A stretch of 64,000 nucleotides of DNA from Candidatus Falkowbacteria bacterium. GTDB taxonomy: Bacteria; Patescibacteriota; Patescibacteriia; JAACEG01. The stretch is taken from NCBI GenBank assembly GCA_018651725.1, contig JABIDK010000001.1, positions 748 to 64,747 on the forward strand, in the 5' to 3' direction. Of the stretch, positions 2,329 through 50,240 are shown piece after piece. Below the pieces are notes generated by a model. The model ran no database searches. It saw nothing but the letters and a program-made list of their open reading frames with translations, and had not been told where the DNA came from. Position 1 is the first letter of the stretch. Every line of letters starts with the position of its first letter. A program made the position numbers and the translations under genes.

Positions 2329-3393
2329 TTACAGAGCGTCAAGATCGGCTGCCTGACCCTGAATAACTTTTCCTTGTTTTAATTTTGGTATTTTTTGAAC
2401 ATCGATTACATCGGATGTAGCTCCTAATTTTTTCAACGCGGCATTAAACTTTTCTACCCACCCTAAAAACTCTGTTTCTGTTATAGAACCACTAAAATAC
2501 GCGTTAAATTCAGGCTTTATTACGGTCACCATATTATATTTATAGGCTTCCTCTGCTTGTTCGCCGGCTTTTGTTTTCATCGCTTTAATAAATTGCTCTT
2601 TGCCGTCAGAAGTAAAATATTTCGATACAATCAATTCTCCTTTTTCTTGTTCTGCTTTTTTAGAAATACCTTGATTTAAATCAACTTCTTCAGCCGACAT
2701 TTCTTCGTACACTTTACCTTTTTCGTCAGTAAATTGTTTGTATGTTCCTTGTTGCTTAGATTGCTCTCTTGTTTTGTCTTGAAGCAACCGAAAACGAATT
2801 TTTTTCTCAAATAATTCATAGGCTTTATCATATCTTCCTCCATAGACAGACATATTTGCCAGTTCTTTATCTGTAAACACGCCTTCTGCGCTCATTTCTG
2901 CTGCCCACCCTTTAAATAATTTTACATTTTCTTGTTGTTTTTTAGTAAATTTTTTATCTACTTGTTCGATCGCAGATGCTTCATTAACCGTAACGCCAAA
3001 TTCAGGAGTATAATTTCCAACACTTATTATCCCGGCGGCAAGTATAGCCGCTACCACTCTCGTGCATTTATTTTTTGCCATTTCACCAAGTTTTGTCATA
3101 AATTCTTTTGAATCATTTTTAATAGACTCTAGCAGATTAGGGTCAATTTCCTTTATTTCTTCTTGAGCGGTTTCCGGGGTTAAACTCTCATAAATTTTTA
3201 AAACTTCTTCTGGGTCAATTCCTAATTCTTGTTCAAAATAATCAAGTTGCCCCTCTATTCGCGTAGCTTCTTCCAGCTTTGCTTCTTTTTCTTCTACAGA
3301 GAGATCTGAGCTCTCGATTTCTTGATTAAGTTTTTCTAATTTATTGGTGCCTTGTTTTAATTCCTCTCCTGTCGCTAAAGTTTCAAATTTCAT
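2329..3393 (-). CDS. Hypothetical acidic coiled-coil protein
   Basis: Long ORF, Glu/Lys-rich, no recognisable motif. Co-directional with recA. Confidence 0.5.
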   Translation of the reverse strand: MKFETLATGEELKQGTNKLEKLNQEIESSDLSVEEKEAKLEEATRIEGQLDYFEQELGIDPEEVLKIYESLTPETAQEEIKEIDPNLLESIKNDSKEFMTKLGEMAKNKCTRVVAAILAAGIISVGNYTPEFGVTVNEASAIEQVDKKFTKKQQENVKLFKGWAAEMSAEGVFTDKELANMSVYGGRYDKAYELFEKKIRFRLLQDKTREQSKQQGTYKQFTDEKGKVYEEMSAEEVDLNQGISKKAEQEKGELIVSKYFTSDGKEQFIKAMKTKAGEQAEEAYKYNMVTVIKPEFNAYFSGSITETEFLGWVEKFNAALKKLGATSDVIDVQKIPKLKQGKVIQGQAADLDAL

Positions 3394-3445
3394 AAAGTTG
3401 ATATTAATGTTATTTTATTAATTATTTTAAACCTCTGAAGCCAAG

Positions 3446-3886
3446 CTAATCTTTTTTTTCCGGAGTAATACGCCCTTCTTTTTTAGCCTCACTTATTTTT
3501 AATCTATTTTCAATATCTTTCCATTCCGGAAGCTTAACGCCAGCTTTCTCAAGATCTTTCTGTAGTTCTTCGTCTGACTTGCTATTAAATTCAATGCAAA
3601 TATCAGTATCCTTTATTAGGTCTTCTAGTAATTTTTCCGGTGACATTTTGACTAACCTCTCTATTTTTTCAGTATCTTCTGTCATTTTACCTTCTGCTGG
3701 CTCATAAGCTATATACTCCCATAAAGTAATCTCATCTCCTAATTCTAAAACATCTTGTTGTTCTTTTGTTAGCATGCCCTGTTGAACTAACTCTGCAATA
3801 GTAGTACTTCTAGATAAAATAAACTTTTCTCTGTTGTTATCTGACTCTTTTTTGTTTATGTTTATTTGATCAAGTTTTTCTGTCAT
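3446..3886 (-). CDS. Hypothetical protein immediately downstream of recA, at the position where recX usually sits; identity unproven
   Basis: The 146-aa acidic ORF follows the recA stop by 29 bp. No clear RecX repeat signature is visible by eye. Confidence 0.4.
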   Translation of the reverse strand: MTEKLDQININKKESDNNREKFILSRSTTIAELVQQGMLTKEQQDVLELGDEITLWEYIAYEPAEGKMTEDTEKIERLVKMSPEKLLEDLIKDTDICIEFNSKSDEELQKDLEKAGVKLPEWKDIENRLKISEAKKEGRITPEKKD

Positions 3887-3914: not shown

Positions 3915-4946
3915 TTACTTAGCATCCTCTTTCTCTTTCTCTCTTACCGTTTCCCAGACTTTTTTCTTTATTTCTTTGATGAATTTTGGATTTTCTCGCA
4001 GAGTTCTTTTGGCGTTTTCTCTACCGACTCCTAACTTTTCCTCACCGTAGGTATAGGAGTTGCCTGATTTTTTTATTATGTTAAATTCTACTCCTTTATC
4101 TAGGACGTCTCCGGAGATTGAGATTCCTTCGTTGTACATGATTTCAAAAACAGTATTTTTAAACGGAGCAGCTACTTTATTTTTTACTACCTTAGCTTTT
4201 ACTTGGTTGCCGATAATTTGGTCGCCTTTTTTAATTTGGGCGCTTCTTCTAACTTCAATTCTAACCGATGAATAAAACTTTAAAGCCATTCCGCCGGTAG
4301 TTGTTTCCGGGTTGCCGAAGAACACACCAATTTTTAAACGGATTTGATTGATAAAAATTAAAACAGTGTTGCTTTTGTTAATTACGCCGGTTAATTTTCG
4401 AAGCGCTTGGCTCATTAGCCTGGCTTGAGTTCCCATTTGCCTGTCACCCATTTCTCCTTCAATTTCTGACTTTGGTACAAGCGCGGCAACTGAATCAACC
4501 ACGATAACGTCAACGGCGTTAGAGCGAACCAACGTTTCGGTAATCTCAAGGGCTTGTTCACCATTATCTGGTTGAGAAATTAACAACTCTTTTACATTCA
4601 CGCCAATTTTTTTAGCATACTCCGGATCAAGCGCGTGTTCAGCATCCACAAACGCTGCTACGCCCCCTTGTTTTTGCACTTCAGCTACAATATGTTGCGC
4701 TAAAGTTGTTTTTCCGGAAGCCTCCGGGCCGTAAATTTCTATAATTCTCCCGCGCGGCACTCCACCTACGCCAAGAGCAATATCAAGAGAAAGACAACCT
4801 GTTGAAACAGCCGAAACCTTTGCTTTCTTAGCTTCCCCCAGCTTCATAATAGAACCATCCCCAAACCGTTCTTTAATTTGAGCTACAGCCTCTTCCGCTG
4901 CCTTTAATTTTTCCTGCCCCTCATCTTTTTTGTTTTTATCGGTCAT
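3915..4946 (-). CDS. recA: Recombinase RecA
   Basis: Walker [30 protein letters not shown], and L2-loop region [23 protein letters not shown]. Confidence 0.95.
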
Positions 4947-5345: not shown

Positions 5346-7547
5346 TTAATTTTCTTCTTCGTTATTATTCTCTTTTTCTTCGTCCAAACTTTCCTGCGAA
5401 ACCAAAACCTCTCTTGATTTGGCTCCGTCGGCCGGACCGATTATCCCGAGTTCTTCCAAGGCCTCAATAAGTCTGGCAGCTTTATTATAGCCGATTCTCA
5501 TCCTTCTTTGTAGTAGTGATGCTGAGGCTTTTCTGCCCCTAACAACAATTTCTTTGGCCATTTCAATTAACTCTTCATCTTCGCCAAAATCATCGTTTTT
5601 CCCTGAAATACTAACCCCTCCTTGGCGTTCAACAACTGTTTCATCGTACTCAACTGAATCGTAATTAAGTTTTATATAGCTGGTAATTTTTTTAATTTCA
5701 CTTTCAGAGACAAACGCTCCTTGTAATCTTTTTGGTTTTGAGGTCTCAGCAGAAACAAAAAGCATGTCTCCGCGACCTAACAATTTTTCCGCTCCACTAC
5801 TGTCTAAAATTGTTCGTGAATCTACCAGAGAAGCAACACTAAAAGCAATTCGTGAAGTAATATTAGCTTTAATAAGCCCGGTAATAACATTAACCGATGG
5901 ACGCTGAGTAGCCAAAATTAAATATATTCCAACCGCTCGTGACATTTGTGCCAAGCGAATAATCAAAGCTTCAATTTCCGGACCGGCTGAGGCCATTAAA
6001 TCCGCCAACTCATCGATAATTATGATAACACTTGGCATTGTATTGCCGGCGGCTCGGTAAGAAAAAATATCGCGATTTTTTGCATCAGATAAAACTTCAA
6101 ACCGACGTTCCATCTCAGAGACTGCCCACTTTAGCGCATTAACCGTTTCTTTAACTTTTGTAATGACTGGTGTTAAAAGATAAGGAGTTTTGCCATAAAT
6201 CGGAAGCTCAACTCTTTTCGGGTCGATCATTATAAACTTCAAATCATCAGGAGAATTTTGATACATTAAACTTAAAATAATAGTGTTAATACAAATTGTT
6301 TTTCCTGAACCAGTCGAACCGGCAATTAAAAGATGCGGATTTCTTGTAAGATCGGTCATCCAAGTTTTTCCGGAGACGTCTTTGCCTAAGGTAATCATTA
6401 AATCAGACGGTCTGTTTTTGAATTCGTCGGAGGTAATAATATCTTTCAAGCGAACCTTTGCGGCTTGTTTATTCGGCACTTCTACTCCTACTAAAGACTT
6501 GCCCGGGATAGGTGCTTCAATTCTTATCGGGTGAGCTGCCAAGGCAAGAGCTAGATCGTTACTTAGTGTAATTATCTGAGACAGCTTAACTCCTTCAGCT
6601 GGTCGTAGAGTGTGCTGGGTAACAGTTGGCCCAACGCTTACTTTCCCCATCTCTACTTCTATGTTAAAATTCTCCAAAGTTTTTCTGATAGTCTCCATAT
6701 TCGCGTTAATGTCTCCGCTAGTTGGCTTGTCTCCGCCGTTATGGAGAAGATCAAGCGGTAGGTCTATTTTCTTTTTCTTAGGTTTATGATTAAATTTAAT
6801 TTCCTCTTGCTCCCCCTCTAAATCTTCTTCGTTGCCGGATATCTCTGTTTTTACAAAATCAACCTCTTTATCGTTATCGTCCTCTTCAATAAATTCCTCT
6901 TCCTCTTCATTTTCGTGCTCTTTACCAAACTTTTTTTGCTGTCTATAGTTGTGGAATTTGTCTTTAGATTGAATTGCAACTTTTAACCCTTTAGAAAAAA
7001 TTATCTTTAAAATATTAAGCCCGCTCAACAGGTTATCTAGAGAAACGTTAAAAATAAGAAGAATTGATCCAATAAAAGCAGAAACAAATATCACCAAGCT
7101 TCCCCAAAACCCTAAAAAGTATCCAGCTGGGTAACCTAAAATAAGACCAATATAACCTCCGCCTTCACCAAAGGACACCTGCTTTAAACTGCCCGTGAAA
7201 CTTTGATTTAAATCTTGAGTTAAATGAAAAATTCCATAAAAACTTAAAACAAAAAAAACAAGTCCGACATAATGTAAACTTGTTAAAACTTTTTTTCGAG
7301 CACTTACAATAAAGTAGGTAACAGCTGAAAGTAAAAAAGGAAAAATAATATAACCAATTCCGAAAAACTGTTTCAAAACCTCTTCCAACCACAAACCAAA
7401 TCTTCCAGCCAAATGAAATAAACTTAAAAAAGAAAGAACAATAAAAGCAATTAAAACCACAATTATAATCCCTTTTTTCGCCTCACTACTGATTGAAAAT
7501 TTATCTTTTTTATTATAACTATACTTTTTTCGTTTTCTCATAAACAT
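5346..7547 (-). CDS. ftsK: DNA translocase FtsK/SpoIIIE
   Basis: N-terminal TM segments, an acidic linker, Walker A GSTGSGKT, and a C-terminal winged-helix gamma domain (LLQRRMRIGYNKAARLIEALEELGII). Confidence 0.9.
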   Translation of the reverse strand: MFMRKRKKYSYNKKDKFSISSEAKKGIIIVVLIAFIVLSFLSLFHLAGRFGLWLEEVLKQFFGIGYIIFPFLLSAVTYFIVSARKKVLTSLHYVGLVFFVLSFYGIFHLTQDLNQSFTGSLKQVSFGEGGGYIGLILGYPAGYFLGFWGSLVIFVSAFIGSILLIFNVSLDNLLSGLNILKIIFSKGLKVAIQSKDKFHNYRQQKKFGKEHENEEEEEFIEEDDNDKEVDFVKTEISGNEEDLEGEQEEIKFNHKPKKKKIDLPLDLLHNGGDKPTSGDINANMETIRKTLENFNIEVEMGKVSVGPTVTQHTLRPAEGVKLSQIITLSNDLALALAAHPIRIEAPIPGKSLVGVEVPNKQAAKVRLKDIITSDEFKNRPSDLMITLGKDVSGKTWMTDLTRNPHLLIAGSTGSGKTICINTIILSLMYQNSPDDLKFIMIDPKRVELPIYGKTPYLLTPVITKVKETVNALKWAVSEMERRFEVLSDAKNRDIFSYRAAGNTMPSVIIIIDELADLMASAGPEIEALIIRLAQMSRAVGIYLILATQRPSVNVITGLIKANITSRIAFSVASLVDSRTILDSSGAEKLLGRGDMLFVSAETSKPKRLQGAFVSESEIKKITSYIKLNYDSVEYDETVVERQGGVSISGKNDDFGEDEELIEMAKEIVVRGRKASASLLQRRMRIGYNKAARLIEALEELGIIGPADGAKSREVLVSQESLDEEKENNNEEEN

Positions 7548-20398: not shown

Positions 20399-22162
20399 TT
20401 ATTTTTCAAAGTAATCTTCAATTACTTTTTCAGCTAAAAGTTTAAAGCGATCAAGCCCTGCTATAGCCTGTGGTTCATCCCGGTCAATGCGTCGCTCAGG
20501 AAATCCGATGTCTATATCTCCTGCCTTTTTGTCTATTCCCTGATCCTTTCTCCATTGCAAAAGCGCCCTGGTTGGATCCACTCCTTTATAATAAACAATT
20601 TTTGAAGGTTTTTTTGTTGGATTTTTCGCAAAATGTTCCTCCCAAAATTCTTTAGAATTTATCGTATCCTGCGCTTCTAAAAATAAAATACTTTTATCTT
20701 CCAATGCTTTATCTATACTTAAATCAACTGAATGACCTGGATACTTTATTCCTTTTTCTTCACTCTTTTTCTCTTGAGAAAAATATTGTGAATTATCAAG
20801 AATAGCGGATTGTAGTCGTTGATCAGATATGCCAAATTCTTGTTTTAATAGCTGACGAAACGGTTCCAATTTTTTTAATTTTAATGATGCCATGGCTTGC
20901 GCATCACCACCATATCGAGTAAGTTCCCAAAATACTTTCGAAAGTTGTTTTTCAAAATTATAAAAATCCGGTGAATCTACTACATGTCTAATTGCGTCTT
21001 GATAGTCAGAATTTTCAATCGGGTTGTTATTTTTATCAAGCTTATATCGCGACCCGGTTTTTTTGTCCACTTTTGCTTCTTCGGGAATAAAAATAATTCC
21101 GGCGTTTAAATCCATACCCCTTTCTTCATTTGCCCAAACCCATTGATCATTCCAATAATCACCACGACTCATCTCGTCTCCTAATTGACCGCTAAAATAA
21201 TATTGTGAGGCAACATGGGCAGAAGGATAAGTAATAAAAATCTCATTCCCCTTTTCAGATCCATAATATGTATCAGCGACTTCTTCTGTGGCAAAATGGA
21301 TAGCCGCCCTGTCTACATAAGTTCCAGGCTCTCCCTGTCTTCCAAACCCACCTTCTGTAGTTATGAAAGCAAGAGATTCTAAGGCTTCTTCTTTGTTTTT
21401 AAACATGTTAAGCTCAAGAAATTTTACAAGAGCTTGTTCCTTTTCGTTTTCAATTAGATAAACACCAAGAGGTGAACGCAATCTTCCGTCTTCAACCATT
21501 TTCATAAAACCGCCAAAGTAAGCGCCCTTACCTGCGGTATGATGCATATGTCCAACATGATCACGAATCCCCTGTCTTGTAACGTGGGTAACCATTTCGC
21601 GTGGAAATCTTTTAAGTAAAAGCGTGTAATCTTCAAGCGACAGCGAAGCTAAATTTTCCTCAGAAAAATATTTTATAATATCTTCTTTTGAATACTCGCT
21701 CCTTGCCCACTTTTCTTCTTGTTCTTTATAAAAATTATCCAGCATTGCCCTGACACCCTCTATTCCCGATGGCGTTTCTTGTGATTTCAACTTTTCAGAA
21801 ACTGTCTGTAATTCAGTAATCCCTTTATCTTGCTGTTGTTTTAATTTCTCGTACGTTCGCTGTCCAACGACGGCATCGGCTCGAACCTTTTTTAACTTAA
21901 AATAATTTAACAGCTCCTTAAATCCTGAATTGGAAAGCTCGGTAATTTCGCTTTCCAATTTGCGGATAGCTTCCAGTTTTTTATCCAAAGATTTTTCGCG
22001 TTCACCGGTAGTTTCTTGCAATTCAGAGCGTCTTTCCGTTTGAGCCCTTTTTTCGGTAAAGTGTTCTGCTCGCTTAGCCCTAATTGTCTGAGCAGTCTGT
22101 TGTCGTTCTTCCGGCGATTTTTCTTTAGAAAAGTCTCTTATAAATTTTGGTGTTTTATCCAT
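20399..22162 (-). CDS. Large hypothetical protein (587 aa), no recognisable domain
   Basis: Long uninterrupted ORF with a charged N-terminal coiled-coil-like region. Confidence 0.55.
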   Translation of the reverse strand: MDKTPKFIRDFSKEKSPEERQQTAQTIRAKRAEHFTEKRAQTERRSELQETTGEREKSLDKKLEAIRKLESEITELSNSGFKELLNYFKLKKVRADAVVGQRTYEKLKQQQDKGITELQTVSEKLKSQETPSGIEGVRAMLDNFYKEQEEKWARSEYSKEDIIKYFSEENLASLSLEDYTLLLKRFPREMVTHVTRQGIRDHVGHMHHTAGKGAYFGGFMKMVEDGRLRSPLGVYLIENEKEQALVKFLELNMFKNKEEALESLAFITTEGGFGRQGEPGTYVDRAAIHFATEEVADTYYGSEKGNEIFITYPSAHVASQYYFSGQLGDEMSRGDYWNDQWVWANEERGMDLNAGIIFIPEEAKVDKKTGSRYKLDKNNNPIENSDYQDAIRHVVDSPDFYNFEKQLSKVFWELTRYGGDAQAMASLKLKKLEPFRQLLKQEFGISDQRLQSAILDNSQYFSQEKKSEEKGIKYPGHSVDLSIDKALEDKSILFLEAQDTINSKEFWEEHFAKNPTKKPSKIVYYKGVDPTRALLQWRKDQGIDKKAGDIDIGFPERRIDRDEPQAIAGLDRFKLLAEKVIEDYFEK

Positions 22163-22217
22163 AGGTTTTGCCTAATTAATTCTGTTTATATTATATCTTA
22201 AAAAATTATATTAATAA

Positions 22218-22247
22218 AGTAAAAAGGGAAGAGTATTATTCTTCCCT
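22218..22247 (-). terminator. Rho-independent terminator (minus strand) after ORF 22260-22550
   Basis: Hairpin gggaagagtattattcttccc, followed on the minus strand by a T-run. Confidence 0.6.
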
Positions 22248-22259
22248 TAGGGTTATTTG

Positions 22260-22550
22260 CTATCCATGGGCGGCAATAAGCACTTTATTGTTCCGGCCAT
22301 CATCATAAAATACCTTACGAGTTTTATGAACAACCGAATGAAAAACAACTAAATACGCCCATACGGCCATTGGACCGGTAAGTACAACCTCTTCAATGTT
22401 AATATCCATTGTGGCGATATTTCTGCCTACAATATTAACTGCTTCTTCCACCGGAGTAATTAGATTTAACCGTCCAGCCACTTCGGTAATCTCGCAACCA
22501 TTATATAGGTTAGTGTTTGTGAGACCGAGATTAATAGTCTTAACAACCAT
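22260..22550 (-). CDS. Hypothetical protein (96 aa), islet module A, distal gene
   Basis: ORF with GC and codon usage shifted from the flanking genes. No recognised family. Confidence 0.45.
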   Translation of the reverse strand: MVVKTINLGLTNTNLYNGCEITEVAGRLNLITPVEEAVNIVGRNIATMDINIEEVVLTGPMAVWAYLVVFHSVVHKTRKVFYDDGRNNKVLIAAHG

Positions 22551-22632
22551 TTTGTCACCTCTTTATTATTTATTTTACGCTGACTATTTACCAAGGAGCA
22601 ACGATATCTCCTTTTTCAATACAACGAAAAAA

Positions 22633-23019
22633 CTATCTCCGCCATTTTCTCGCTACATCGTCAAGTTTACTCTGGAAATAGGCATCAGAGTGTTCGTGTC
22701 CGGTCATATCGGACACTTTGTCCTCTCTAATTGAAGCGTAATCCCCAACAGGAAGTTTGGACCCTACATTTTTTCTAGCTATCATGCAACTACCCATCCC
22801 ATTGGTATACCGCATGTACTCAACGGTAAAAGAGGTTTTTATAGTCTCAAAATTAACCCTGACTTTGATACTATTAATTTTGTTTATGTTCGCAAACTCG
22901 AACACAAACATTGCGATAGGCTTGAACTGGTGTAACATGCACCAACTATTATGGGCGTTAAAATTATTCTCTTCCCTCCATGGGAGGGTAGTTAAAAACT
23001 CCCTTAATTCTTTTTCCAT
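22633..23019 (-). CDS. Hypothetical protein (128 aa), islet module A, proximal gene
   Basis: A GGAGAGGAGG RBS precedes the ATG. Repeat R1 lies directly upstream. Confidence 0.45.
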   Translation of the reverse strand: MEKELREFLTTLPWREENNFNAHNSWCMLHQFKPIAMFVFEFANINKINSIKVRVNFETIKTSFTVEYMRYTNGMGSCMIARKNVGSKLPVGDYASIREDKVSDMTGHEHSDAYFQSKLDDVARKWRR

Positions 23020-23070
23020 TTGTTCCTCCTCTCCGATATTTTATTCCCTCGGCAGCGGGGTTTTGGGTTT

Positions 23071-23133
23071 TTAAAGAACTTTTACTTCCTCTAAGTCTAC
23101 TTCACCGATTGAAATAAACTTGGAAAAAGTGGG
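23071..23133. repeat. Direct repeat R1 (about 63 bp), an upstream/leader element
   Basis: ttaaagaacttttacttcctctaagtctacttcaccgattgaaataaacttggaaaaagtggg. Nearly identical to 24747-24805 apart from a 6-bp indel. Confidence 0.7.
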
Positions 23134-23722
23134 AATTTTTGAACTTATGGTATTCCCAAACCATATTGTAAACGCTAACGTGGTTTACTTGTAATAATTT
23201 TGACTTGAAATTATCACACCGTCGCTGTTTTCGCATAAAGCGGATTAGAATCGGTTTACTCATTCCCGATTCAGCGATGCTTGTTTATTTATATAGCGTA
23301 GCTGTACGGATTTCTCCTGCAAGCTCTGCGCTTGACGACAAGAAGTCTAGCCTCTTTTTCTCTTTCGAGAATAAGGATAATCTTCATCCTGAGAATAAAA
23401 ATCATCCCTGTCGTCGTTCTCTATCAGATTGCTATGTCTGCAATCTTTGCAGACATGCTTGTAGTGTATCTTTGTACGATACATGCAATCCCGAAGAGGG
23501 AATTGGCAATGGTCCTTTTTCCAAGTCATAACCACCTCCAAAGAGTTAACGCACTCTAAAATATCTCTTTATTCCCAAAATTTTAACCCGCGTCACCAAG
23601 TTTTATATTTGGTATTCAGAAACATCCTTTCGCGCCGACGTTTCATCAAGGTACAGCCGGAACCCGTTTTTGTTGAAGCGGGTGAAAACAAAAATTGCTT
23701 CCACCCGTAAATAACCTAGCTC

Positions 23723-24373
23723 TTACTTTTTATCAATAAGAGCTTCAAGAATTTTGCCCCAGTCTTTACCGTACTCAGCAAAATCCGTACCAGTCCCATC
23801 GCATCTCCAGCACTTATATTTTTCATCATCGCGTTTTATGCTGCCAGCCCCGCTACAGCCTGAACACTCACGCTCAGTGCCGTTTATGCCAACTGTTGAA
23901 ATACAGTTGGTAAATATAGCTTTTGCTCCATCAATTTGAAATTGATGATAATTCAAATTATCAAGCATGGCTGAGGTTGGATGGTGATGATGATTCATGT
24001 CTGTAGCAACGGCTACAAATTTAGCACCGCTCTTTGCGGCCTCTAACGCGAGCGCCCATCCTACGGGCATTACCTTGCCAACATGCCTCAAGCCTTCACC
24101 ACCTTGCGCCATTTTTCCTGCCGGCATAAGAAGATCGCACAGGACTGCGTCCCAAAAAGGGTCTGTTTCATTTTTGTTTAAGCCTGGCCAATTCGTGCCG
24201 TCAATCTCATGCTCCTCAGCCCTCCTTAGAAGCTCTTTTTCATAACCTCTTTTGCTTAAGAGATTATAAGCTTCGTCATGAGATGAACATGTTGTTAGCG
24301 CATGTTCGCCACCCAAAGTCTGCTCTGCCGCCTTAAGGTGCCTCTCGTTGTCATCAATTACTAAAATATTCAT
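23723..24373 (-). CDS. Receiver-like (CheY-like) domain fused to a DnaJ-type CxxCxGxG zinc-finger C-terminus
   Basis: N-terminus MNILVIDDNERHL...DAVLCDLLMP matches the receiver-domain acidic pocket and phospho-acceptor Asp context. C-terminus carries CSGCSGAG and CWRCDGTG repeats. 216 aa. Confidence 0.55.
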   Translation of the reverse strand: MNILVIDDNERHLKAAEQTLGGEHALTTCSSHDEAYNLLSKRGYEKELLRRAEEHEIDGTNWPGLNKNETDPFWDAVLCDLLMPAGKMAQGGEGLRHVGKVMPVGWALALEAAKSGAKFVAVATDMNHHHHPTSAMLDNLNYHQFQIDGAKAIFTNCISTVGINGTERECSGCSGAGSIKRDDEKYKCWRCDGTGTDFAEYGKDWGKILEALIDKK

Positions 24374-24530
24374 AACATTTCTCCAGCCCCTGAAATACCC
24401 CGAGGCACGGGTTAGCCACGATATGCAGCTTTTTTTGAATTGGCAGTGTCGGCTTGCCAGGCCCCCGGGAGCTGCCCCTGAGTATTACAAGTCCGGTTTA
24501 AAGTCATGGACGTGGACTGATCTGCAAACC

Positions 24531-24725
24531 CTATACCGGCTCAGGATCCGGATGTAACCAAATGTCACATTGATCGCAAATGTCATAACCTTCAGCTACT
24601 TGGTTGTGACATCCTTTGCTGGCGCAGATTACCGGAGTGATTGTTGCCAAAAACTCCGGATGTGCTTGTTGTTTTAGCACCGCCAATCGGCGACGCCTCC
24701 TCATGTTATTATCCTTATCGGACAT
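24531..24725 (-). CDS. Small Cys-containing protein (64 aa), islet module B, first gene
   Basis: CASKGCHNQ...CDQCD. Repeat R2 lies immediately upstream. Confidence 0.4.
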   Translation of the reverse strand: MSDKDNNMRRRRRLAVLKQQAHPEFLATITPVICASKGCHNQVAEGYDICDQCDIWLHPDPEPV

Positions 24726-24746
24726 GGCAACACCTCATTATTTAGT

Positions 24747-24805
24747 TTTAAAGAACTTCCTCTAAGTCTACTTCACCGATTGAAATAAACTTGGAAAAAG
24801 TGGGG
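24747..24805. repeat. Direct repeat R2 (about 59 bp), second copy of the upstream/leader element
   Basis: ttaaagaacttcctctaagtctacttcaccgattgaaataaacttggaaaaagtgggg. Confidence 0.7.
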
Positions 24806-24968
24806 AATGTTTATTGAGCCTCCCCCTTAGTTAAATAGTTTTTGTAATGAACATCTAATCTTTATTATTCTTACAATATCACAAAGCAAATAAACTGTCA
24901 GTAAAAATGTAAAAAATGTAAATTTTTATTAAAATTTATTTTATTACCTCGTTTTTTTAGCTTAAATA

Positions 24969-24996
24969 TTGACAAAATTGATATATATAGTATAAT
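24969..24996 (+). promoter_or_regulatory. Sigma70-like promoter for the TrmB-family regulator gene
   Basis: TTGACA, a 16-nt spacer, then TATAAT. Two TTGACAAAAT-like motifs sit at about 24969 and 25015. Confidence 0.55.
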
Positions 24997-25057
24997 ATAA
25001 AAAATGACCCTTCTGTCGACAAAATTAAAAAATACTAAATAATTAACAAAAAAATTT

Positions 25058-25786
25058 ATGCTATTAAAAACATTACAAAAAATCGGGCTTAATGAAAAAG
25101 AGGCCAAGGTTTATTTGGCCTCCCTGGAATTGGGCGAAACAAACATACAAAGGATCTCCAAAAAATCAGGGGTAAAAAGAACAACTGTTTACGATATATT
25201 GGAATCGTTAAAAAAAAGAGGGCTAATCAGCACCTTTAAAAAAAATAAAAAAATCTTTTACTATGCGGAATCGCCAAAATCCCTAGACAAAGACCTTGAT
25301 GAAAAAAAAGAATTATTAAAACAGGCCATGTCGGAGCTAATGTCAATTTCCAATCTCATAGATAAAAAGCCGAAGATTAGATACTTTGAACATGTCGAGG
25401 GAATAAAAGAAGTTTATTTGGACACATTAAACTATCCGGAACAAGAAATGGTTTCATGGATCGCTGAAGAAGCTTTTTATAATTTTGATGTTGATTTTTT
25501 AAATAGCTATTATCATCCCAAAAGATTAAAGAAAAAAATTTGGACAAGAGAAATCGCCTCTGATGATCCGGAAACTCAAAAATATAAAAGAGATGATGAA
25601 AAAAGCCTAAGAAACACAAAACTATTATCAGCAGAAGACTTCCCTTTGGATGTAAGTATAAACCTGTACGGAAAAAATAAAATCGGCATTATGTCGTTTG
25701 ACGAAGAAATAGGCATAATAATAGAAAGTGAAAAAATTTATGTTACATTGAAAAGTATGTTTGAATTTGCTTGGGGTAAATTATAA
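25058..25786 (+). CDS. TrmB-family transcriptional regulator (N-terminal wHTH), paralog 1
   Basis: GLNEKEAKVYLASLELGETNIQRISKKSGVKRTTVYDILESLKKRGLI is a TrmB-type wHTH. It is a paralog of 30869-31618. Confidence 0.7.
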   Translation: MLLKTLQKIGLNEKEAKVYLASLELGETNIQRISKKSGVKRTTVYDILESLKKRGLISTFKKNKKIFYYAESPKSLDKDLDEKKELLKQAMSELMSISNLIDKKPKIRYFEHVEGIKEVYLDTLNYPEQEMVSWIAEEAFYNFDVDFLNSYYHPKRLKKKIWTREIASDDPETQKYKRDDEKSLRNTKLLSAEDFPLDVSINLYGKNKIGIMSFDEEIGIIIESEKIYVTLKSMFEFAWGKL

Positions 25787-25878: not shown

Positions 25879-26139
25879 TTAATGAGCATACTTTGGTTCC
25901 GGAGGATTTTGTTTTCCGCACTTGGTGCAAATTTCAACTATTAAACCCTCGGTTCTTTTGATTGGTGCTTTGCAACACCGACTTTTTTCAATTATAAGCC
26001 CTCCAACTTGATGATACGGATTTGGCCCTGGACAAATATTTTTAAGTATTTTGCTTAAACATTTTTTACAAATACATGCCCTAATTTCGTCTTCCTCTAA
26101 ATCATTTTTGCATTGGCTACACATCCATCTTATCGACAT
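25879..26139 (-). CDS. Small Cys-rich (multi-CxxC) zinc-finger protein
   Basis: CSQCKN...CICKKC...CCKAP...CTKCG. Confidence 0.45.
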   Translation of the reverse strand: MSIRWMCSQCKNDLEEDEIRACICKKCLSKILKNICPGPNPYHQVGGLIIEKSRCCKAPIKRTEGLIVEICTKCGKQNPPEPKYAH

Positions 26140-26318
26140 TTTACTTCTCCCTAATTTTATTTATTTTTTTTAATTTTACACCCCTGACAAATTTATTTTT
26201 TTAGTTTTTTTATGTTAACATCTTGCAAAATTTTTGTAAAATAAATTAGTGGAATTTTTTATTTTAAGTAAAAAAAAGAGGACGACTAGGTGTCGTCCTT
26301 TGGGTTTGGGGTTATTGT

Positions 26319-26645
26319 TTAACGCAACTTAAAATGTTGCGTTCTTACTTTTTTGATCTCCATTTCCGGGTCGCAATTTATACATGCCCCGAGGAAAATT
26401 AACCGACCCTTTAAATGATTGCCGGAAAGCAAGGATTTGGCCGCCCTATGAATATTAGTGACCTTTTCGTACTCTTGTAAAAAATGCGTTGTCCCGCACT
26501 GGTCACAGATTACCCTACCCTGTTTTTTTACTTTTTTAACACATGAGGCACAAAGCCCCTCCCTTCTGTTGATTTCTAGAAAACATACCATACATTCGTA
26601 CGTTTTCCTTTTTACCGATATCGGTAATTGAAACAACTTTCCCAT
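26319..26645 (-). CDS. Small Cys-rich zinc-finger protein
   Basis: CMVCF...CASCV...CDQCG...CINCD. Confidence 0.45.
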   Translation of the reverse strand: MGKLFQLPISVKRKTYECMVCFLEINRREGLCASCVKKVKKQGRVICDQCGTTHFLQEYEKVTNIHRAAKSLLSGNHLKGRLIFLGACINCDPEMEIKKVRTQHFKLR

Positions 26646-46159: not shown

Positions 46160-46494
46160 GGAAAATATTATTAGGTACCTAAGTTAAGGGATTTTAAGAG
46201 ATATTTTGGTAAAATTACAGTGAATTTACTGTGGAGAACTATTAAATATCGCAAAAGCAGATAACTTTATTAGTTATATACGAACTTATTAACTTCTTGC
46301 TTTATTATAGCCAGATATAGCCTTTAAAATTCTATTCAAGAAATAGCAAGTCGCATAAACATTGGATTTTAAGGTGGATATACCTGTGGATAACTTGGGG
46401 AAAACATGTGGAATAAATAGATAGCCATATAAACCTTCTAGCATTTTAGCGTGTAAACAAGCTAAAAAACAGTGTTTTTGTAGGATGTTTATAT

Positions 46495-46510
46495 TGTTTC
46501 ACGTGAAACA
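46495..46510. repeat. parS-type palindrome, copy 1
   Basis: tgtttcacgtgaaaca matches the chromosomal parS consensus TGTTNCACGTGAAACA. Confidence 0.75.
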
Positions 46511-46534
46511 TAGTAAGATTAAAAGATTAACAAA

Positions 46535-46550
46535 TGTTTCACGTGAAACA
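46535..46550. repeat. parS-type palindrome, copy 2
   Basis: aatgtttcacgtgaaacatt. Confidence 0.75.
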
Positions 46551-46620
46551 TTGTGGAATTGATAAAAATTTGTTATTATATGCTTAAAAGCTTATTAAAC
46601 ATAGCTTTAAAGGGATTTTT

Positions 46621-47016
46621 ATGAACTTAAAACTTAAAAAAACAATTATTGAACTTATATTTTGGTCTCATTTAGTGATAGTTTTTATTTGGTTTGGGTT
46701 ATTTTTTGTGCCAAATTCTCTATGGAGCAATAAAACAGCTTTTCATTTTTGGTTTATCGTTGATATTACAACTATCCAATTTTTTTGGGGGCTTATATTG
46801 TATAAATATACAAAAAAAGTAAATATAATTTGTCCGATGACTACTTTAATGCAAAAATTAAGAGGTTTTCCCCTAAAAACAAAGGAGAATTTCGCTCATT
46901 CTTTTATAGTGGAGTGCTTAGGAAGGTTAAATGTTAAGGTTAGCTATAAAACTATTAATTTACTTTTATTAATTACTGTTGTTTTGGTATCGATTCAGTA
47001 TTATTTGTTAGACTAA
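46621..47016 (+). CDS. Hypothetical small membrane protein
   Basis: Three hydrophobic helices; the ORF lies between parS copies. Confidence 0.45.
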   Translation: MNLKLKKTIIELIFWSHLVIVFIWFGLFFVPNSLWSNKTAFHFWFIVDITTIQFFWGLILYKYTKKVNIICPMTTLMQKLRGFPLKTKENFAHSFIVECLGRLNVKVSYKTINLLLLITVVLVSIQYYLLD

Positions 47017-47019
47017 CAA

Positions 47020-47035
47020 TGTTTCACGTGAAACA
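47020..47035. repeat. parS-type palindrome, copy 3
   Basis: aatgtttcacgtgaaacatt. Confidence 0.75.
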
Positions 47036-47127
47036 TTAATCAAAAAAATATAACAAGGTGAATTCCGAAGGAAGAGAAAGTGGTCTGGGCCAAAACACGA
47101 CAACATAACGATGTGATGTAATGATAA

Positions 47128-47143
47128 TGTTTCACGTGAAACA
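47128..47143. repeat. parS-type palindrome, copy 4
   Basis: aatgtttcacgtgaaacatt. Confidence 0.75.
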
Positions 47144-47233
47144 TTGTATTAAAAAAACCGCACAAATATGCGGTTTTTTGATTTTGTTTAGGCTAGAGGT
47201 CGTATGTTTTCTTACTTTTTTATTTTTTTGATA

Positions 47234-48733
47234 CTATTTAACCCAGTGTTTTTCTTTTATTTCTTTGTCTTCTTCCTCTTTTTTTTCTTTTATTTTGCCT
47301 TTAGCTTGTTTTCTTAGATCCTTTAAGTCCATTTTATCAAGTTCTTTGGCTCGTTTTTTCAAGTATGTTTTAGTATTATTTTTGGGATTTTCTATTACTT
47401 CGGCTAATAAACAATCTAAAATTGCTCCAAATTTGGGACTAGGAGACATTTTCAGGTCTTTTATCAATGTTTCACCACTCACCTTAAGACTTTTTACGGA
47501 AATTGGATCTTTGCTGACTTTATCGATTAAATACTCTAAATGGCGTAATTTGTAGGGTTTTGCCTTTGGGACACCAGACCCAAGCCTGTCTGAAATGCGT
47601 AAATCCATTAAATCTTTCATATTCTCTTTACCTACTTTTTTTACCAGTCTCCTGATTCCGGCATCTGAAACATCACCAACATTATAGTAAAACATGTGGT
47701 TTTTAATCAAATGAGTTACTTTTTCAACGTCTTGGCTGGAAAAAGCCATTCTTTTCATTATTTTTTTAGCTATTTTAGCGCCAACGATGTCGTGGTTGTA
47801 GAAAGTAGCATCAATTCCTTGTCCGCGTTTGGTTTGCGGTTTGGCAATATCATGAAATAAAGCTGCCAATCTAACGCGGTAGTCCTTGCTTGGACAGTGT
47901 TTTAGTGACATTATTAAATGTTTAAAGATAGTATAGGTATGATGCTTGTTTTGATTCATTCCTACACCAAGCTCTAATTCTGGGATAATATATTGCAAAA
48001 GCTTAGCGTTTCGTAGCAAAAGTATACCTTCTTCAGGAGTTTCTGACTGTAAAATCTTAATAAACTCATCGTGAATTCGTTCGTTGGCTATTTTTTTGAT
48101 TAATTTAGCGTTATTTCTGATAGCTTTTAAGGTTTTCGGCTCTATTTTCCAACCTAAAACAACCGCAAATCTAATCGCACGCATCATTCTAAGCGCATCT
48201 TCATTAAAACGCTCGTTCGGATCACCAACCGCCCTAATTAACTTGTTTTTAAGGTCTTTTTGACCGTTAAACAGATCTGTAACTTGATAGTTGTTATCTG
48301 TTGTTTGGTTTTTTGTGTTTTTTGATTGCGCCCGATGTTTCACGTGAAACATTGCCAGTGCATTTACTGTAAAATCTCGTCTTTCTAGGTCTTCTTTTAG
48401 GGTTTTAGCAAATTTTACGCTATCTGGTCGTCTTTTGTCGCTATATTTTGACTCGATTCTGTAGGTTGTTATCTCTACTATATCTATTGTTTCGTCATTA
48501 TTGTTTTTGATTTTTATGCCTACAGTCCCAAATTTATTCTCATAAACAGTTTCAGGGAATATTTTTTGTATTTCTTTTGGTCTGGCGTTTGTAGTGATAT
48601 CCCAATCCTTTGGTTTATTATTTATCAATAAATCACGAACGCAACCACCAACAAGATAAGCCTCAAAATTGGCCTTTTCTAGTGTTTTTAGTGTATTTTG
48701 TACGTATTTTGGGATTTTCATAGTCATAGTCAT
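47234..48733 (-). CDS. cca: CCA-adding tRNA nucleotidyltransferase with a C-terminal HD domain
   Basis: GGCVRDLLINNKPKDWDITT and RRDFTVNALA head motifs, HD region ALFHDIAKP. Contains an in-frame parS-derived insertion (MFHVKH...). Confidence 0.85.
   Translation of the reverse strand: MTMTMKIPKYVQNTLKTLEKANFEAYLVGGCVRDLLINNKPKDWDITTNARPKEIQKIFPETVYENKFGTVGIKIKNNNDETIDIVEITTYRIESKYSDKRRPDSVKFAKTLKEDLERRDFTVNALAMFHVKHRAQSKNTKNQTTDNNYQVTDLFNGQKDLKNKLIRAVGDPNERFNEDALRMMRAIRFAVVLGWKIEPKTLKAIRNNAKLIKKIANERIHDEFIKILQSETPEEGILLLRNAKLLQYIIPELELGVGMNQNKHHTYTIFKHLIMSLKHCPSKDYRVRLAALFHDIAKPQTKRGQGIDATFYNHDIVGAKIAKKIMKRMAFSSQDVEKVTHLIKNHMFYYNVGDVSDAGIRRLVKKVGKENMKDLMDLRISDRLGSGVPKAKPYKLRHLEYLIDKVSKDPISVKSLKVSGETLIKDLKMSPSPKFGAILDCLLAEVIENPKNNTKTYLKKRAKELDKMDLKDLRKQAKGKIKEKKEEEDKEIKEKHWVK
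48336..48351. repeat. parS-type palindrome, copy 5, in frame inside the cca coding sequence
   Basis: gatgtttcacgtgaaacatt, translated as MFHVKH within Cca. Confidence 0.75.
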
Positions 48734-48777
48734 TTAAGCATATAATCATTTAAACATTTAAGCAAGTTGTTTTGCAA

Positions 48778-48793
48778 TGTTTCACGTGAAACA
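48778..48793. repeat. parS-type palindrome, copy 6
   Basis: aatgtttcacgtgaaacatt. Confidence 0.75.
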
Positions 48794-48860
48794 TTATAAA
48801 ATACTTTTAGGAAGCGGGGAAACTTAGTGTTTCCCCGAGATTGGAAGCATAAAAGTACGA

Positions 48861-49094
48861 TTATGCTGATAAATCAGTTGCACGAATATTTTTTACAACA
48901 CTTTTTGTAAATATTACTGCCTTTTCCGGTGAGTCGAATGCTGGGTTTGTGGAAAGTAACGTTGTATGGAAAAAACCATCATGGTATATATTAACTGCAC
49001 CTGCCCATTTACCGGTTTTTTTATCCTGACCATACGGTTCGCAACGAATATCGTTGTCTTTATTCTGGATAACTAATGCTGTATATCTTGTCAT
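48861..49094 (-). CDS. Small hypothetical protein (77 aa)
   Basis: ORF only. Confidence 0.4.
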   Translation of the reverse strand: MTRYTALVIQNKDNDIRCEPYGQDKKTGKWAGAVNIYHDGFFHTTLLSTNPAFDSPEKAVIFTKSVVKNIRATDLSA

Positions 49095-49185
49095 GACACC
49101 CTCCTTTTGCTGATTTAACTTAGTTTAGCCTCCTAAAAGTATTTTATTTTCTAAAGAACAAGATTTTAGATCGTTTAATTGTTAA

Positions 49186-49201
49186 TGTTTCACGTGAAAC
49201 A
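49186..49201. repeat. parS-type palindrome, copy 7
   Basis: aatgtttcacgtgaaacatt. Confidence 0.75.
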
Positions 49202-49243
49202 TTCTTAGCGTTTTATTCTCATGTTTTTTACTTTTTTGAGGAT

Positions 49244-49259
49244 TGTTTCACGTGAAACA
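49244..49259. repeat. parS-type palindrome, copy 8
   Basis: attgtttcacgtgaaacaat. Confidence 0.75.
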
Positions 49260-49274
49260 ATTTTGTGTTTTGTG

Positions 49275-50240
49275 TTATATTTTGATGTTTTTGGCTAACT
49301 GAATGTATTTTTGAGCTGTTTGAGGTAGTTTGTGACCGAGTATTTGCTGGATTTCGCTTACTTTAGTGCCTTTTTTTGCTAAATTAACTGCGAATGTATG
49401 TCGTAGCGAATGACAAGTAGCTTGTTTTTTGATTTTTGTTTTTTTAAAGACTTGTAGAAAGGCTTTTTGAATGGCTCTTTCGGTTAATTTTTGATTTTTT
49501 TGTCCTTTAAATAAATAATTATCTGATAATGTTTCACCCGCCACCAGAACGGTGTCGGGCAGGCGTGAAACATTATCGTCATATGATTGTTCTTGCCCGC
49601 CTGCAACGCTGTAGCAACTGCGGGCAGGTGTTCCAATATATTTTTTTAGCTTTTCAACAATATTTTTTGGTAAACCTAATGTTCTTTTTTGGTGTTTTCC
49701 GTTATTAGTTATTTTAACTTGATTTTTAAAAAAGTCCAGTGTTTTTACCTTAATATTAACTATTTCTGATATTCTAAGGCCTGTTAAGTACATTAATTCA
49801 AAAATTAGCCGATGTTTTGGGTTTTGGGTTGATTTTAGTATTTTGTTTACCTCTTTATCTGTTAAAATAACTGGTTGTTTTTTATCAAGCTTGGCCCGAC
49901 CGATTTTTCCATGCGGAGCAAAAAATTTACGATGTAAAATGCTCTCAAAATAGAACTTTAAAGCACTATGGGTGGTATTTAAGGTAGAACGTGACTTTTT
50001 TTCTTTAACTAGTTTCTCTAAGTAGCTAATTATATCTTTACTTTGAATATTTTTAGGGCTTTTACTCGCAAAACTAACTATTTCTGAGATATAATAAAGG
50101 TAGCTTTTAATGGTTTTACTATCAAAATTCAACTCAACCATTGTTTTCTTTAGCTTATGAAGTGGATTTTTACTGGGGTATTTGTAGGGAATCATGTTAA
50201 TATTTAAACAAGCGAAACGACGATGTTTCACGTGAAACAT
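49275..50240 (-). CDS. Tyrosine recombinase / integrase (XerC/XerD-like); start codon uncertain
   Basis: C-terminal catalytic region HSLRHTFAVNLAKKGTKVSEIQQILGH...YIQ. The annotated N-terminus MFHVKH is encoded by a parS copy, so the real start is probably an internal Met. The ORF contains in-frame GC-rich palindromic insertions. Confidence 0.75.
   Translation of the reverse strand: MFHVKHRRFACLNINMIPYKYPSKNPLHKLKKTMVELNFDSKTIKSYLYYISEIVSFASKSPKNIQSKDIISYLEKLVKEKKSRSTLNTTHSALKFYFESILHRKFFAPHGKIGRAKLDKKQPVILTDKEVNKILKSTQNPKHRLIFELMYLTGLRISEIVNIKVKTLDFFKNQVKITNNGKHQKRTLGLPKNIVEKLKKYIGTPARSCYSVAGGQEQSYDDNVSRLPDTVLVAGETLSDNYLFKGQKNQKLTERAIQKAFLQVFKKTKIKKQATCHSLRHTFAVNLAKKGTKVSEIQQILGHKLPQTAQKYIQLAKNIKI
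49530..49572. repeat. Split parS: the two half-sites are separated by a 27-bp GC-rich insert, inside the integrase ORF
   Basis: tgtttcac | ccgccaccagaacggtgtcgggcaggc | gtgaaaca. Confidence 0.65.
49596..49630. repeat. GC-rich 35-bp element, copy A, in frame in the integrase ORF
   Basis: cccgcctgcaacgctgtagcaactgcgggcaggtg. A near-identical copy lies at 60860-60893. Confidence 0.65.
50224..50239. repeat. parS-type palindrome, copy 9
   Basis: gatgtttcacgtgaaacatt. Confidence 0.75.

Follow-up and report, generated by a model that had tools for sequence, protein, structure and literature searches.

Structured RNA elements situated close to translation starts are known from several systems. The RNase III hairpins of the early genes of phage T7 and the 5′ stabiliser stem-loops of the ompA type are established processing and stability elements, and synthetic insulators of the RiboJ type equip the 5′ untranslated region (UTR) with a hammerhead and a downstream hairpin. 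In prophages, hammerhead ribozymes occur in clusters that flank variable genes; these cleave in vitro and have been proposed to cut polycistronic RNA into gene-length mRNAs (PMC3088659). A further type, the promoter-early stem-loops (PeSLs) of T4-type phages, comprises near-identical stem-loop cassettes before small ORFans (PMC2839356, PMC4122927). This article examines a pair of repeated elements, R1 and R2, in a stretch of 64,000 nucleotides from Candidatus Falkowbacteria bacterium (the window; all positions refer to it). Both elements belong to a minus-strand array of small genes that is headed by a divergent gene for a TrmB-like regulator and includes a gene for a 216-aa protein with a receiver fold and a zinc finger. 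They are read here as two copies of a modular mRNA leader that opens each unit of the array and would serve in processing, insulation or stabilisation of the mRNA, a reading to which we assign a probability of about 0.6. Greater confidence attaches to the more general statement that the element works at the RNA level, as a member of a family of leaders composed of a hairpin and a conserved box; the specific mechanism of processing or insulation is put forward only tentatively.

The likeness to the T7 and ompA elements lies in an imperfect hairpin of about 20 bp with one mismatch, located in a polycistronic spacer just 5′ of a translation start, and in the repetition of a similar sequence at several junctions. 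In contrast to those systems, cleavage in the window is presumed, and we know of no counterpart there to the conserved single-stranded GUUCUUU that follows the hairpin here. With RiboJ, the common principle is a structured or self-cleaving module between a promoter or other upstream sequence and the ribosome-binding site (RBS), which provides each gene with a standard 5′ end; RiboJ is engineered, whereas the natural arrays would be a biological analogue with a presumed function.

The prophage clusters (Perreault et al. 2011, PMC3088659) resemble the locus in that copies of an RNA device occupy the spacers of co-directional, non-constant genes, and sister loci of the window contain genuine type III hammerheads in the same arrangement. 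In the window itself, by contrast, the slot is filled by a plain 20-bp hairpin without a hammerhead core. The setting also differs: a patescibacterial chromosome, a TrmB-like head gene, receiver and zinc-finger cargo, no prophage or integrase neighbourhood, and an invariant downstream GUUCUUU box for which no prior description was found in the searchable literature. PeSLs, too, are plausible points of homologous exchange, at which genes could be gained together with a ready-made expression signal. They are, however, composite terminator/promoter DNA signals of phages; the element in the window has no detectable promoter and resides on a cellular chromosome, and its G·U pairs, its strand specificity and its substitution by hammerheads favour a leader that acts at the RNA level.

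The core of the repeat is an exact 48-mer, TTCCTCTAAGTCTACTTCACCGATTGAAATAAACTTGGAAAAAGTGGG, at 23086-23133 (R1) and 24757-24804 (R2), where none would be expected by chance. The copies are 100% identical across these 48 nt, and the sequence flanking them is unrelated. On the left side, TTTAAAGAAC is common to both, with a 6-nt insert that splits the R1 copy; a repeat search returned the pair as 57 nt of 95% identity (23084-23140 and 24755-24811), and the complete element measures about 57-66 nt. Read on the minus strand, each copy consists of CCCACUUUUUCCAAGUUUAUUUCAAUCGGUGAAGUAGACUUAGAGGAAGU, an optional AAAAGU, and UCUUUAAA. Inverted repeats (ACTT-N5-AAGT) can be recognised by eye twice within the element. 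The copies are spaced 1671 nt apart and enclose a segment of about 1.67 kb. A preliminary description of this stretch had located them at 23071-23133 and 24747-24805 and had stated that they differ only by a 6-bp indel, and the comparison of the 48-mer and of TTTAAAGAAC agrees with both points. It had also advised a search for further copies; the element occurs twice in the window, which holds no third copy of the 48-mer even when up to three mismatches are allowed, and an exact 24-mer of the element gave 0 matches in the JGI metagenome collection. The locus is present in 23 contigs of this species from several samples (source annotation Candidatus Falkowbacteria bacterium, GCA_018656705.1), with 99.98-100% identity; being essentially identical, they offered no compensatory changes, and the nearest relative beyond the species shows just 56% identity at the protein level.

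In the transcript, each copy would present, in this order, a short helper hairpin, the 20-bp hairpin, GUUCUUU and an A-run (Table 1). The R2 hairpin has a folding energy of −19.3 kcal/mol on the sense strand (z −4.5), compared with −12.0 kcal/mol (z −0.8) on the antisense strand, which folds more poorly because four of the pairs are G·U. The fold energy of the R1/R2 hairpin was matched by 0 of 200 shuffles. The helper hairpin has its 3′ arm (AUUCCC) inside the repeat and its 5′ arm outside; the latter differs between the copies (GGGGAG in R2, GGGAAU in R1) and is paired in both. Directly 3′ of the leader hairpin follows GUUCUUUAAA. In R2, GUUCUUUAAAA abuts the stem; in R1, an identical box comes after the 6-nt linker, 51 nt before the ATG. 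The last value lies within the 25-60 nt that had earlier been estimated for the distance between leader end and RBS, while the 21 nt in R2 fall slightly short of it. The earlier proposal of a shared leader as such is supported by the sense-strand fold, by the position before the RBS, and by the strand-specific model matches described below. R2 would thus lead the first unit of the array, with the 64-aa gene followed by the receiver gene, and R1 would lead the pair of 128-aa and 96-aa genes.

Comparison with other genomes was based on 62 related loci, fetched from species-representative genomes with an alignment of the receiver family (A1). These loci (designated by L numbers) are metagenome assemblies, in which genes were called by a simple heuristic for open reading frames (ORFs). 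In most of the 62, a TrmB-like gene lies directly upstream of the receiver gene, usually in divergent orientation, and none of them contains homologues of the 64-, 60-, 128-, 96- or 587-aa proteins of the window. Because of this pattern of conservation, TrmB and receiver are regarded as the conserved core, and the remainder as variable cargo. In many of the loci, the receiver gene belongs to an array of small co-directional genes with direct repeats of 40-180 nt in the spacers, for example at L007 (4), L009 (about 10), and L012, L014 and L044 (5 each); at L002 and L005, an element of 45-65 nt precedes the receiver homologue and appears again before the next gene. In all these cases, the repeat sequence differs from genome to genome. 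The window conforms to the same layout, with TrmB upstream of a co-directional array and a leader repeated within it. The comparison speaks against the horizontally acquired cassette pair that the preliminary description had envisaged: the TrmB-receiver pair is syntenic across Patescibacteria, and the family of the 96-aa protein has more than 690 close homologues. Synteny with relatives, proposed at the same time as a check on insertion, is maintained for TrmB and receiver, the other array genes being different, and an insertion is not borne out.

When the sequence upstream of every GTTCTTT in the related loci was folded, a common plan emerged from 37 aligned leaders: a plain hairpin with a stem of 18-22 bp is separated by a linker of 0-15 nt from the box G(T/A)TCTTT-N-A-rich, and the RBS and ATG follow after another 4-60 nt. 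The seven box positions are essentially invariant in these leaders, and the hairpin sequence varies by genome. The linker between hairpin and box, 0-15 nt in the other genomes, may contain another hairpin, and in minimal leaders the ATG lies 17-25 nt past the box. At four loci (L007, L008, L012 and L013), a perfect promoter (TTGACA-N17-TATACT) is followed by a short hairpin and then by the box; since the promoter sits upstream, the box is therefore transcribed at these loci.

Covariation was assessed on an alignment (A3) of 19 hairpin+box leaders from nine other genomes, with the window excluded; the set is small and kinship is ignored. In the A3 hairpin, 86% of the cells are paired, against 71% in shuffles (0/500 equal). 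Changes on both sides are present in 16 of the 18 pairs. The covariation score is 0.57; in controls with the partner shifted by 1-3 columns, it does not exceed 0.33. RNAalifold returned the same stem core as the specified hairpin. A covariance model built on A3 matched both elements of the window along the whole model, R1 with E=0.009 (rank 3 in the window) and R2 with E=0.15; the E-values are rough, and the result lends support without being conclusive. In the related loci, the model gave about 31 full-length matches, all on the gene strand; matches on the opposite strand are weaker and confined to the hairpin.

In some sister loci, the place of the hairpin is taken by a ribozyme. L009 harbours type III hammerheads by Rfam (49.9 and 44.7 bits), and the core regular expression together with Rfam identified further ones at L048, L053, L054, L062, L065, L066 and L123. 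They are always on the gene strand, either in spacers or directly 5′ of the receiver gene. Among the loci ascertained by the receiver, the box lies within a few bases after the hammerhead in 10 of 13 cases, where chance would give about 1 in 1000.

A scan of JGI metagenomes that was blind to proteins provides an independent view. The pattern CTGATGAG-N8-18-CGAAAC-N2-9-GTTCTTT was found in at least 120 stretches. Among the matches listed, with a mean locus length of 5.7 kb, TrmB-like genes are present in 29 and the receiver family in five; of 34 pairs formed by a TrmB-like gene and a ribozyme, 33 have the gene as the upstream partner, 13 of these 33 pairs being divergent (at 0.55-2.5 kb) and 20 co-directional (at 0.9-3.9 kb). 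The ORFs that directly follow hammerhead and box in the matches listed number 83 in 63 clusters, have a median length of 97 aa, and are in many cases Cys-rich or hydrophobic. The hairpin+box model found 24 more elements in 15 of the first 100 scan loci (L077-L176), seven of them at L105, and the strand of these elements coincides with that of the hammerhead of the same locus in all instances (24/24). No prior description of hammerheads in the Candidate Phyla Radiation (CPR), of the box, or of TrmB in combination with a ribozyme was found in a literature search that covered mostly non-subscription sources.

Two observations in the hammerhead loci stand apart. At L066 (4145-4209), an array with three hammerheads also contains a match to the model of transfer-messenger RNA (tmRNA; 66 bits, 65 nt of 374 positions), perhaps a fragment resembling a tRNA, perhaps what is left of an integration event. 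At L009, a repeat of about 95 nt (…GGAGCCCAAGGGAAGCAGAGCCCUCCGGUUGACACACCGAGACAAAAU…) occurs just 5′ of hammerheads or genes at 3356-3451, 4470-4566 and 5695-5749; Rfam does not match this repeat, which is a candidate for a structured RNA.

Because hammerhead and long hairpin interchange before the same box, we infer a shared role in defining 5′ ends. The hairpin would achieve by means of an enzyme, or through its structure, what the hammerhead achieves by self-cleavage. Transcription would run through both R1 and R2, presumably under the control of the TrmB-like regulator, and each cistron would receive a structured 5′ end, either by the cut of a double-strand-specific RNase (e.g. RNase III) or with the hairpin serving directly as a 5′ stabiliser. 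Each translation start would in this way be insulated from the sequence upstream. The single-stranded GUUCUUU and A-run, 4-60 nt 5′ of the RBS, may be where the ribosome docks, or else a protein that binds pyrimidines, for instance one with a cold-shock domain. The box looks like GTCTTTG/T, the preferred site of Bacillus subtilis CspB (PMC1904285); no csp-like gene was found in the window, and the likeness is only a lead. The identity of R1 and R2 could stem from copying of the cassette, by duplication or gene conversion, as the array gains genes.

Bacterial hammerheads are abundant, and the shared slot and box make the question of their biological role testable, in the form of asking which property a self-cleaving ribozyme shares with a 20-bp hairpin when either stands at the 5′ end of an mRNA. 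The comparison also defines a conserved regulatory layout in Patescibacteria, organisms whose genomes are very small and for which experimental genetics hardly exists. Hypervariable small proteins under TrmB-like regulators are candidates for a part in host/phage interaction, and the leader may be the natural counterpart of the ribozyme insulators of synthetic biology.

Several points weigh against the modular leader. That R1 is transcribed is a presumption, and so are cleavage and stabilisation. Membership of the family rests on a 7-mer and on context, because the hairpin sequence is not common to other genomes. In the model search, two AT-rich palindromes (212-290) outscore R1, and R2 is modest with E=0.15. 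Most hammerheads score 33-45 bits, below the Rfam gathering score of 48.5, although their cores are complete and the matches are full-length. The hairpin of L009 followed by a U-rich run is also compatible with an intrinsic terminator. Gene calls in the related loci depend on the ORF heuristic mentioned above, and cassette copying is not directly observed, because no close relative with different cargo was found.

The terminator-like features of the element lead to one alternative, in which hairpin and U-rich GUUCUUU are a leader terminator and read-through is set by an antitermination factor, such as the receiver/zinc-finger protein, or by ribozyme cleavage in sister loci. A hairpin with a pyrimidine- or U-rich tract does outline an intrinsic terminator, as at L009, where the hairpin is followed by UUUGUUCUUUC; the array includes a conserved receiver protein of unknown output, the finger of which has weak matches to Q-like antiterminator PHROGs (E 0.04), and mutually exclusive hairpins can be drawn by eye between the receiver and 60-aa genes. 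Yet the scan for intrinsic terminators (a G+C-rich stem that has, at a distance of 0-2 nt, an 8-nt tail with 5 U or more) reported neither R1 nor R2. Their tails are AAAAGUUC and UCUUUAAA, respectively; R2 has 4 U in 8 nt, and in R1 the spacer AAAAGU intervenes between stem and box. Furthermore, G and C of the box are invariant over the 37 leaders, which a U-tract would not need, the linker of 0-15 nt may contain another hairpin, and the PHROG matches are confined to the zinc finger and are not significant. We regard an attenuator of this kind as unlikely. The chance is lower still for a DNA operator, at which a TrmB-like or other factor would bind R1 and R2 to co-regulate the two units, the hairpin merely reflecting the inverted repeat of a dimer operator. 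Four G·U pairs and a strand-asymmetric structure are at odds with this idea, and so are the preservation of complementarity rather than sequence across genomes, the restriction of full-length model matches to the gene strand, the recurrence of elements deep in arrays, abutting RBSs and distant from promoters, and the fact that a hammerhead, an RNA device, substitutes in the same slot. What speaks for an operator is the almost invariable TrmB-like gene at the head of the arrays, the inverted repeats in the element, and a repeat sequence specific to each genome, as co-evolution of operator and regulator predicts.

A PeSL-type cassette, every copy of which would terminate the preceding unit, launch transcription anew and serve mainly as a recombination point for gene shuffling, would account for the completely different cargo between genomes, and repeated intergenic stem-loop cassettes do flank small ORFan-like genes in plastic regions (PMC2839356, PMC4122927). 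Promoter-like hexamers are nevertheless absent within or just past the element: a consensus scan of the minus strand revealed no sigma-70 site (hexamers 16-18 nt apart, at least 9/12) inside 23068-23157 or 24746-24825, nor a promoter candidate between the 60-aa gene and R1. The shared promoter contemplated in the preliminary description thus finds no hexamer pair within R1 or R2, the best candidate being about 60 nt 5′ of R2. In minimal leaders, an ATG 17-25 nt past the box would be too tight for a promoter; R2 has no co-directional upstream gene in need of termination; and the context is that of a chromosome, not of a phage. Such a cassette is very improbable here, and slightly more so is a neutral scar, that is, a functionless by-product of local duplication or the direct repeats of a 1.67-kb insertion. 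Complete identity over 48 nt with unrelated flanks would suit a scar, as would adjacent genes that are shifted in base composition and partly ORFans. The enclosed segment is not an insert, however, because it contains the receiver gene, which conservation pairs with the TrmB gene outside the repeats; the islet lacks integrase and transposase; the bounds of the repeat coincide with the functional unit of other genomes (hairpin, box and A-run); and dozens of genomes show the phenomenon independently, with sequences that differ. The helper hairpin, moreover, pairs across the repeat boundary in both copies.

A more far-reaching variant, to which we give about as little credence as to the operator, would make hairpin and GUUCUUU an unrecognised RNA-processing signal interchangeable with the hammerhead, either as a minimal self-cleaving motif or as the substrate of an endonuclease or box-binding factor. 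If true, TrmB-headed arrays would express hypervariable small proteins from individually excised mRNAs in a plug-and-play manner, and a segment with a leader at either side, for which the 1.67 kb from R2 to R1 is an example, might be freed as a discrete or circularised RNA.

A number of known element types were tried for R1 and R2 and rejected. A type III hammerhead (RF00008) is not present, as there is no Rfam match and the core expression (CUGAUGA ... GAAA) finds nothing in the islet. At gathering score, no Rfam family was detected in the 64-kb window, and at E≤10 there was nothing notable in 22100-25100. A CRISPR repeat is ruled out by the number of copies (two, 1.67 kb apart and with genes between them), the CRISPR-DR21 match of Rfam at E=4.5 being noise. 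An integron attC site is contradicted by the sequence, in which GTTCTTT departs from the core GTTRRRY and AAAGAAC from the inverse core RYYYAAC, and an integrase is absent among the ten neighbours. Dispersed repeats, i.e. repetitive extragenic palindromes or miniature inverted-repeat transposable elements, do not agree with two copies per 64 kb at a single locus. Direct repeats of the att type, left by an inserted element, were dismissed because the receiver gene that they enclose forms a conserved pair with the TrmB gene beyond them; since tRNA and tmRNA genes were not found in the window, an att site linked to a tRNA is improbable. Nor does the box form one half of an operator palindrome, since AAC is not conserved at +11 to +14, and as a −35 element it would be incompatible with an ATG that may come within 17 nt.

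Table 1. Features of the TrmB-headed array and of the leaders R1 and R2, with their positions in the window.
Feature	Position	Strand	Details
R2 leader hairpin	24755..24801	-	20 bp (8+12), one mismatch, loop AUCGG, four G·U
R1 leader hairpin	23084..23130	-	same as R2 hairpin; −19.5 kcal/mol, z −4.6
R2 helper hairpin	24802..24825	-	GGGGAG / UUCCCC; fold of 24726-24866
R1 helper hairpin	23131..23157	-	GGGAAU / AUUCCC; fold of 23020-23165
R2 box GUUCUUU and A-run	24746..24756	-	21 nt 5′ of ATG of 64-aa gene
6-nt insert AAAAGU, then R1 box GUUCUUU and A-run	23068..23083	-	from sequence
GC-rich 5′ UTR of 128-aa gene	23020..23067	-	ACCCCGCUGCCGAGGG...GGAGAGGAGG; loosely like module B, by eye
Module B, second conserved leader	24374..24432	-	small variable hairpin, ACCCGnnCCUCGGGG-N5-CAGGGG-nn-GGAG, into RBS of receiver gene
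Candidate array promoter	24873..24901	-	CTGACA-17-TATTGT with upstream TG, about 60 nt 5′ of R2 hairpin; consensus match alone
Sigma-70 promoter of TrmB-like gene	24969..24996	+	TTGACA-16-TATAAT, 12/12 in promoter scan
Terminator-like hairpin closing the array	22224..22248	-	terminator scan
Weak terminator-like hairpin over stop codon of receiver gene	23718..23744	-	terminator scan
TrmB-like winged-helix regulator, array head	25058..25786	+	Pfam TrmB E=1.3e-18; divergent, 247 nt from R2
64-aa Cys-rich Zn-ribbon-like ORF, first after R2	24531..24725	-	weak DZR_2 match, E=0.038
216-aa receiver with C-terminal CxxCxGxG zinc finger	23723..24373	-	94 homologues, fold match
Probable 60-aa Cys-rich gene	23347..23529	-	ATG 23529 after GGAGG; annotated in NCBI/ENA; GC content at third codon positions 0.44
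128-aa ORFan, first after R1	22633..23019	-	self-match only in protein searches
96-aa Csx3/Crn3-like protein	22260..22550	-	PADLOC and Foldseek

The order on the minus strand is R2, 64-aa, 216-aa and 60-aa genes, R1, 128-aa and 96-aa genes, and a terminator-like hairpin, with all islet genes on this strand. ORF list and sequence confirm the gene order given previously, down to the closing hairpin at 22224-22248; the four proteins named then were recovered, but a likely 60-aa gene (23347-23529) with a GGAGG RBS had been overlooked. The GC content at third codon positions (GC3) is 0.40-0.47 in the 128-aa, 60-aa, 216-aa and 64-aa genes, in comparison with 0.304 ± 0.052 for 47 other genes (z 1.8-3.1), and is unshifted in the 96-aa gene (0.34), the 587-aa gene (0.28) and TrmB (0.31). 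A shift towards GC, as claimed in the preliminary description, hence exists in four genes; it is modest and patchy, and does not extend to the 96-aa, 587-aa and TrmB genes. No integrase or transposase was detected in the islet by family scans, and the window holds chromosome-type genes, including ORFs of 1297 aa and 1140 aa in tandem.

For the 216-aa protein, 94 homologues with 29-57% identity were found, nearly all of them in metagenome-assembled genomes of Patescibacteria. The family alignment keeps the acidic pocket (D7/D8), D80 (the phospho-acceptor) and T124, and has an invariant H131-P132 where receivers have K-P. The AlphaFold2 model has a mean confidence (pLDDT) of 90, and its top Foldseek matches in the PDB are receiver domains (probability 1.0, E 3e-3). 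Pfam PF00072 does not match the protein of the window, and IMG/VR contains no relatives of the family. The zinc-finger region gives weak matches to PHROGs of phage Q-like antiterminators (E 0.04, not significant).

For the 96-aa protein, more than 690 homologues of 65-78% identity place it in a family that spans the phylum Patescibacteria. Invariant in it are G-P-M-A-V-W, H71, H75 and D84-G-R, and a relative is present at L075 (4001-4282). It is similar in size to the cyclic-tetra-adenylate ring nuclease Csx3/Crn3, and its C-terminal G-P-x-x-W...H...H...D-D-G-R matches Csx3 models, in PADLOC with E=8.8e-7 to 2.5e-3 over the C-terminal half only. In the PDB, the top 11 Foldseek matches of the AlphaFold2 model (pLDDT 92) are all AfCsx3/Crn3 (probability 0.91-0.99, E 0.009-0.084), yet the template-modelling (TM) score is about 0.5. 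The curated thresholds are likewise not reached, with 14 bits against 21 in Pfam and 15.7 against 55.4 in NCBIfam. Apart from shared helix-turn-helix and zinc-ribbon parts, no cas genes were found among the ten scanned neighbours in the window, nor, by Pfam, around the L075 member. Because 65-78% identity holds across the phylum and a CRISPR context is unseen, a housekeeping role in nucleotide or RNA metabolism, rather than in defence, is suggested for this family.

For the 128-aa protein, searches of 5.8 billion clustered proteins and, with phmmer, of 1.84 billion representatives returned only the protein itself, and the family scans gave no match; as judged from these databases, it is a true ORFan. 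The 128-aa, 64-aa and 60-aa genes are the only ones that look lineage-specific. Profile searches of the 216-aa and 96-aa families against PDB sequences yielded nothing significant. The opinion that none of the four proteins belongs to a recognisable family has thus to be revised, as a receiver fold with a CxxCxGxG finger was found for the 216-aa protein and the 96-aa protein is Csx3/Crn3-like; the profile and structure searches recommended together with it gave these resemblances, no match for the 128-aa protein and the weak DZR_2 match for the 64-aa protein. A phage derivation, also raised there, gains no ground from IMG/VR, where relatives are missing, or from the PHROG matches, which are not meaningful.

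The array has a second conserved leader, termed module B. Its motif, in the general form ACCCGnnCCUCGGGG-N5-CWGGGG-nn-GGAG, is present in at least seven genomes. It occurs on the sense strand only, before the receiver gene or neighbouring genes, at L002, L007, L008, L009, L012 and L014, and is repeated before other array genes at L002, L008, L012 and L014. In the consensus fold, CCUCGG pairs with CUGGGG, and CC with the GG of the RBS, with a single covarying pair; the helix is predicted to sequester the RBS in part. Comparison with Rfam produced no match. In the interval from the receiver stop codon to the 60-aa gene (23640-23715, minus strand), inspection by eye suggests two mutually exclusive, attenuator-like hairpins that share CACCCG, the alternatives being CGGGUG...CACCCG or ACCCG...CGGGU.

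Some further observations concern the surroundings of the array. The 587-aa protein encoded downstream (20399-22162) has no family in Pfam, NCBIfam, PHROG or PADLOC, and its gene has a native GC3 of 0.28. On the far side of TrmB (25879-26645), there are two Cys-rich ORFs of 86 aa and 108 aa that resemble double zinc ribbons, the latter with a GC3 of 0.44. The 4 kb at 46494-50320 contain ten copies of a perfect palindrome of 18 bp, ATGTTTCACGTGAAACAT, against an expectation of 0; a 499-aa ORF includes one of them, another lies where a 321-aa ORF resembling tyrosine recombinases (49275-50240) starts, and in several frames the palindrome encodes a recurrent peptide, MFHVKH. The same region contains, at 49100-49205 on the minus strand, a third intergenic GTTCTTT in sense orientation, about 60 nt 5′ of a 77-aa ORF (48861-49094); it is preceded by an 18-bp palindrome and may be either another leader of the R1/R2 kind or a chance occurrence.

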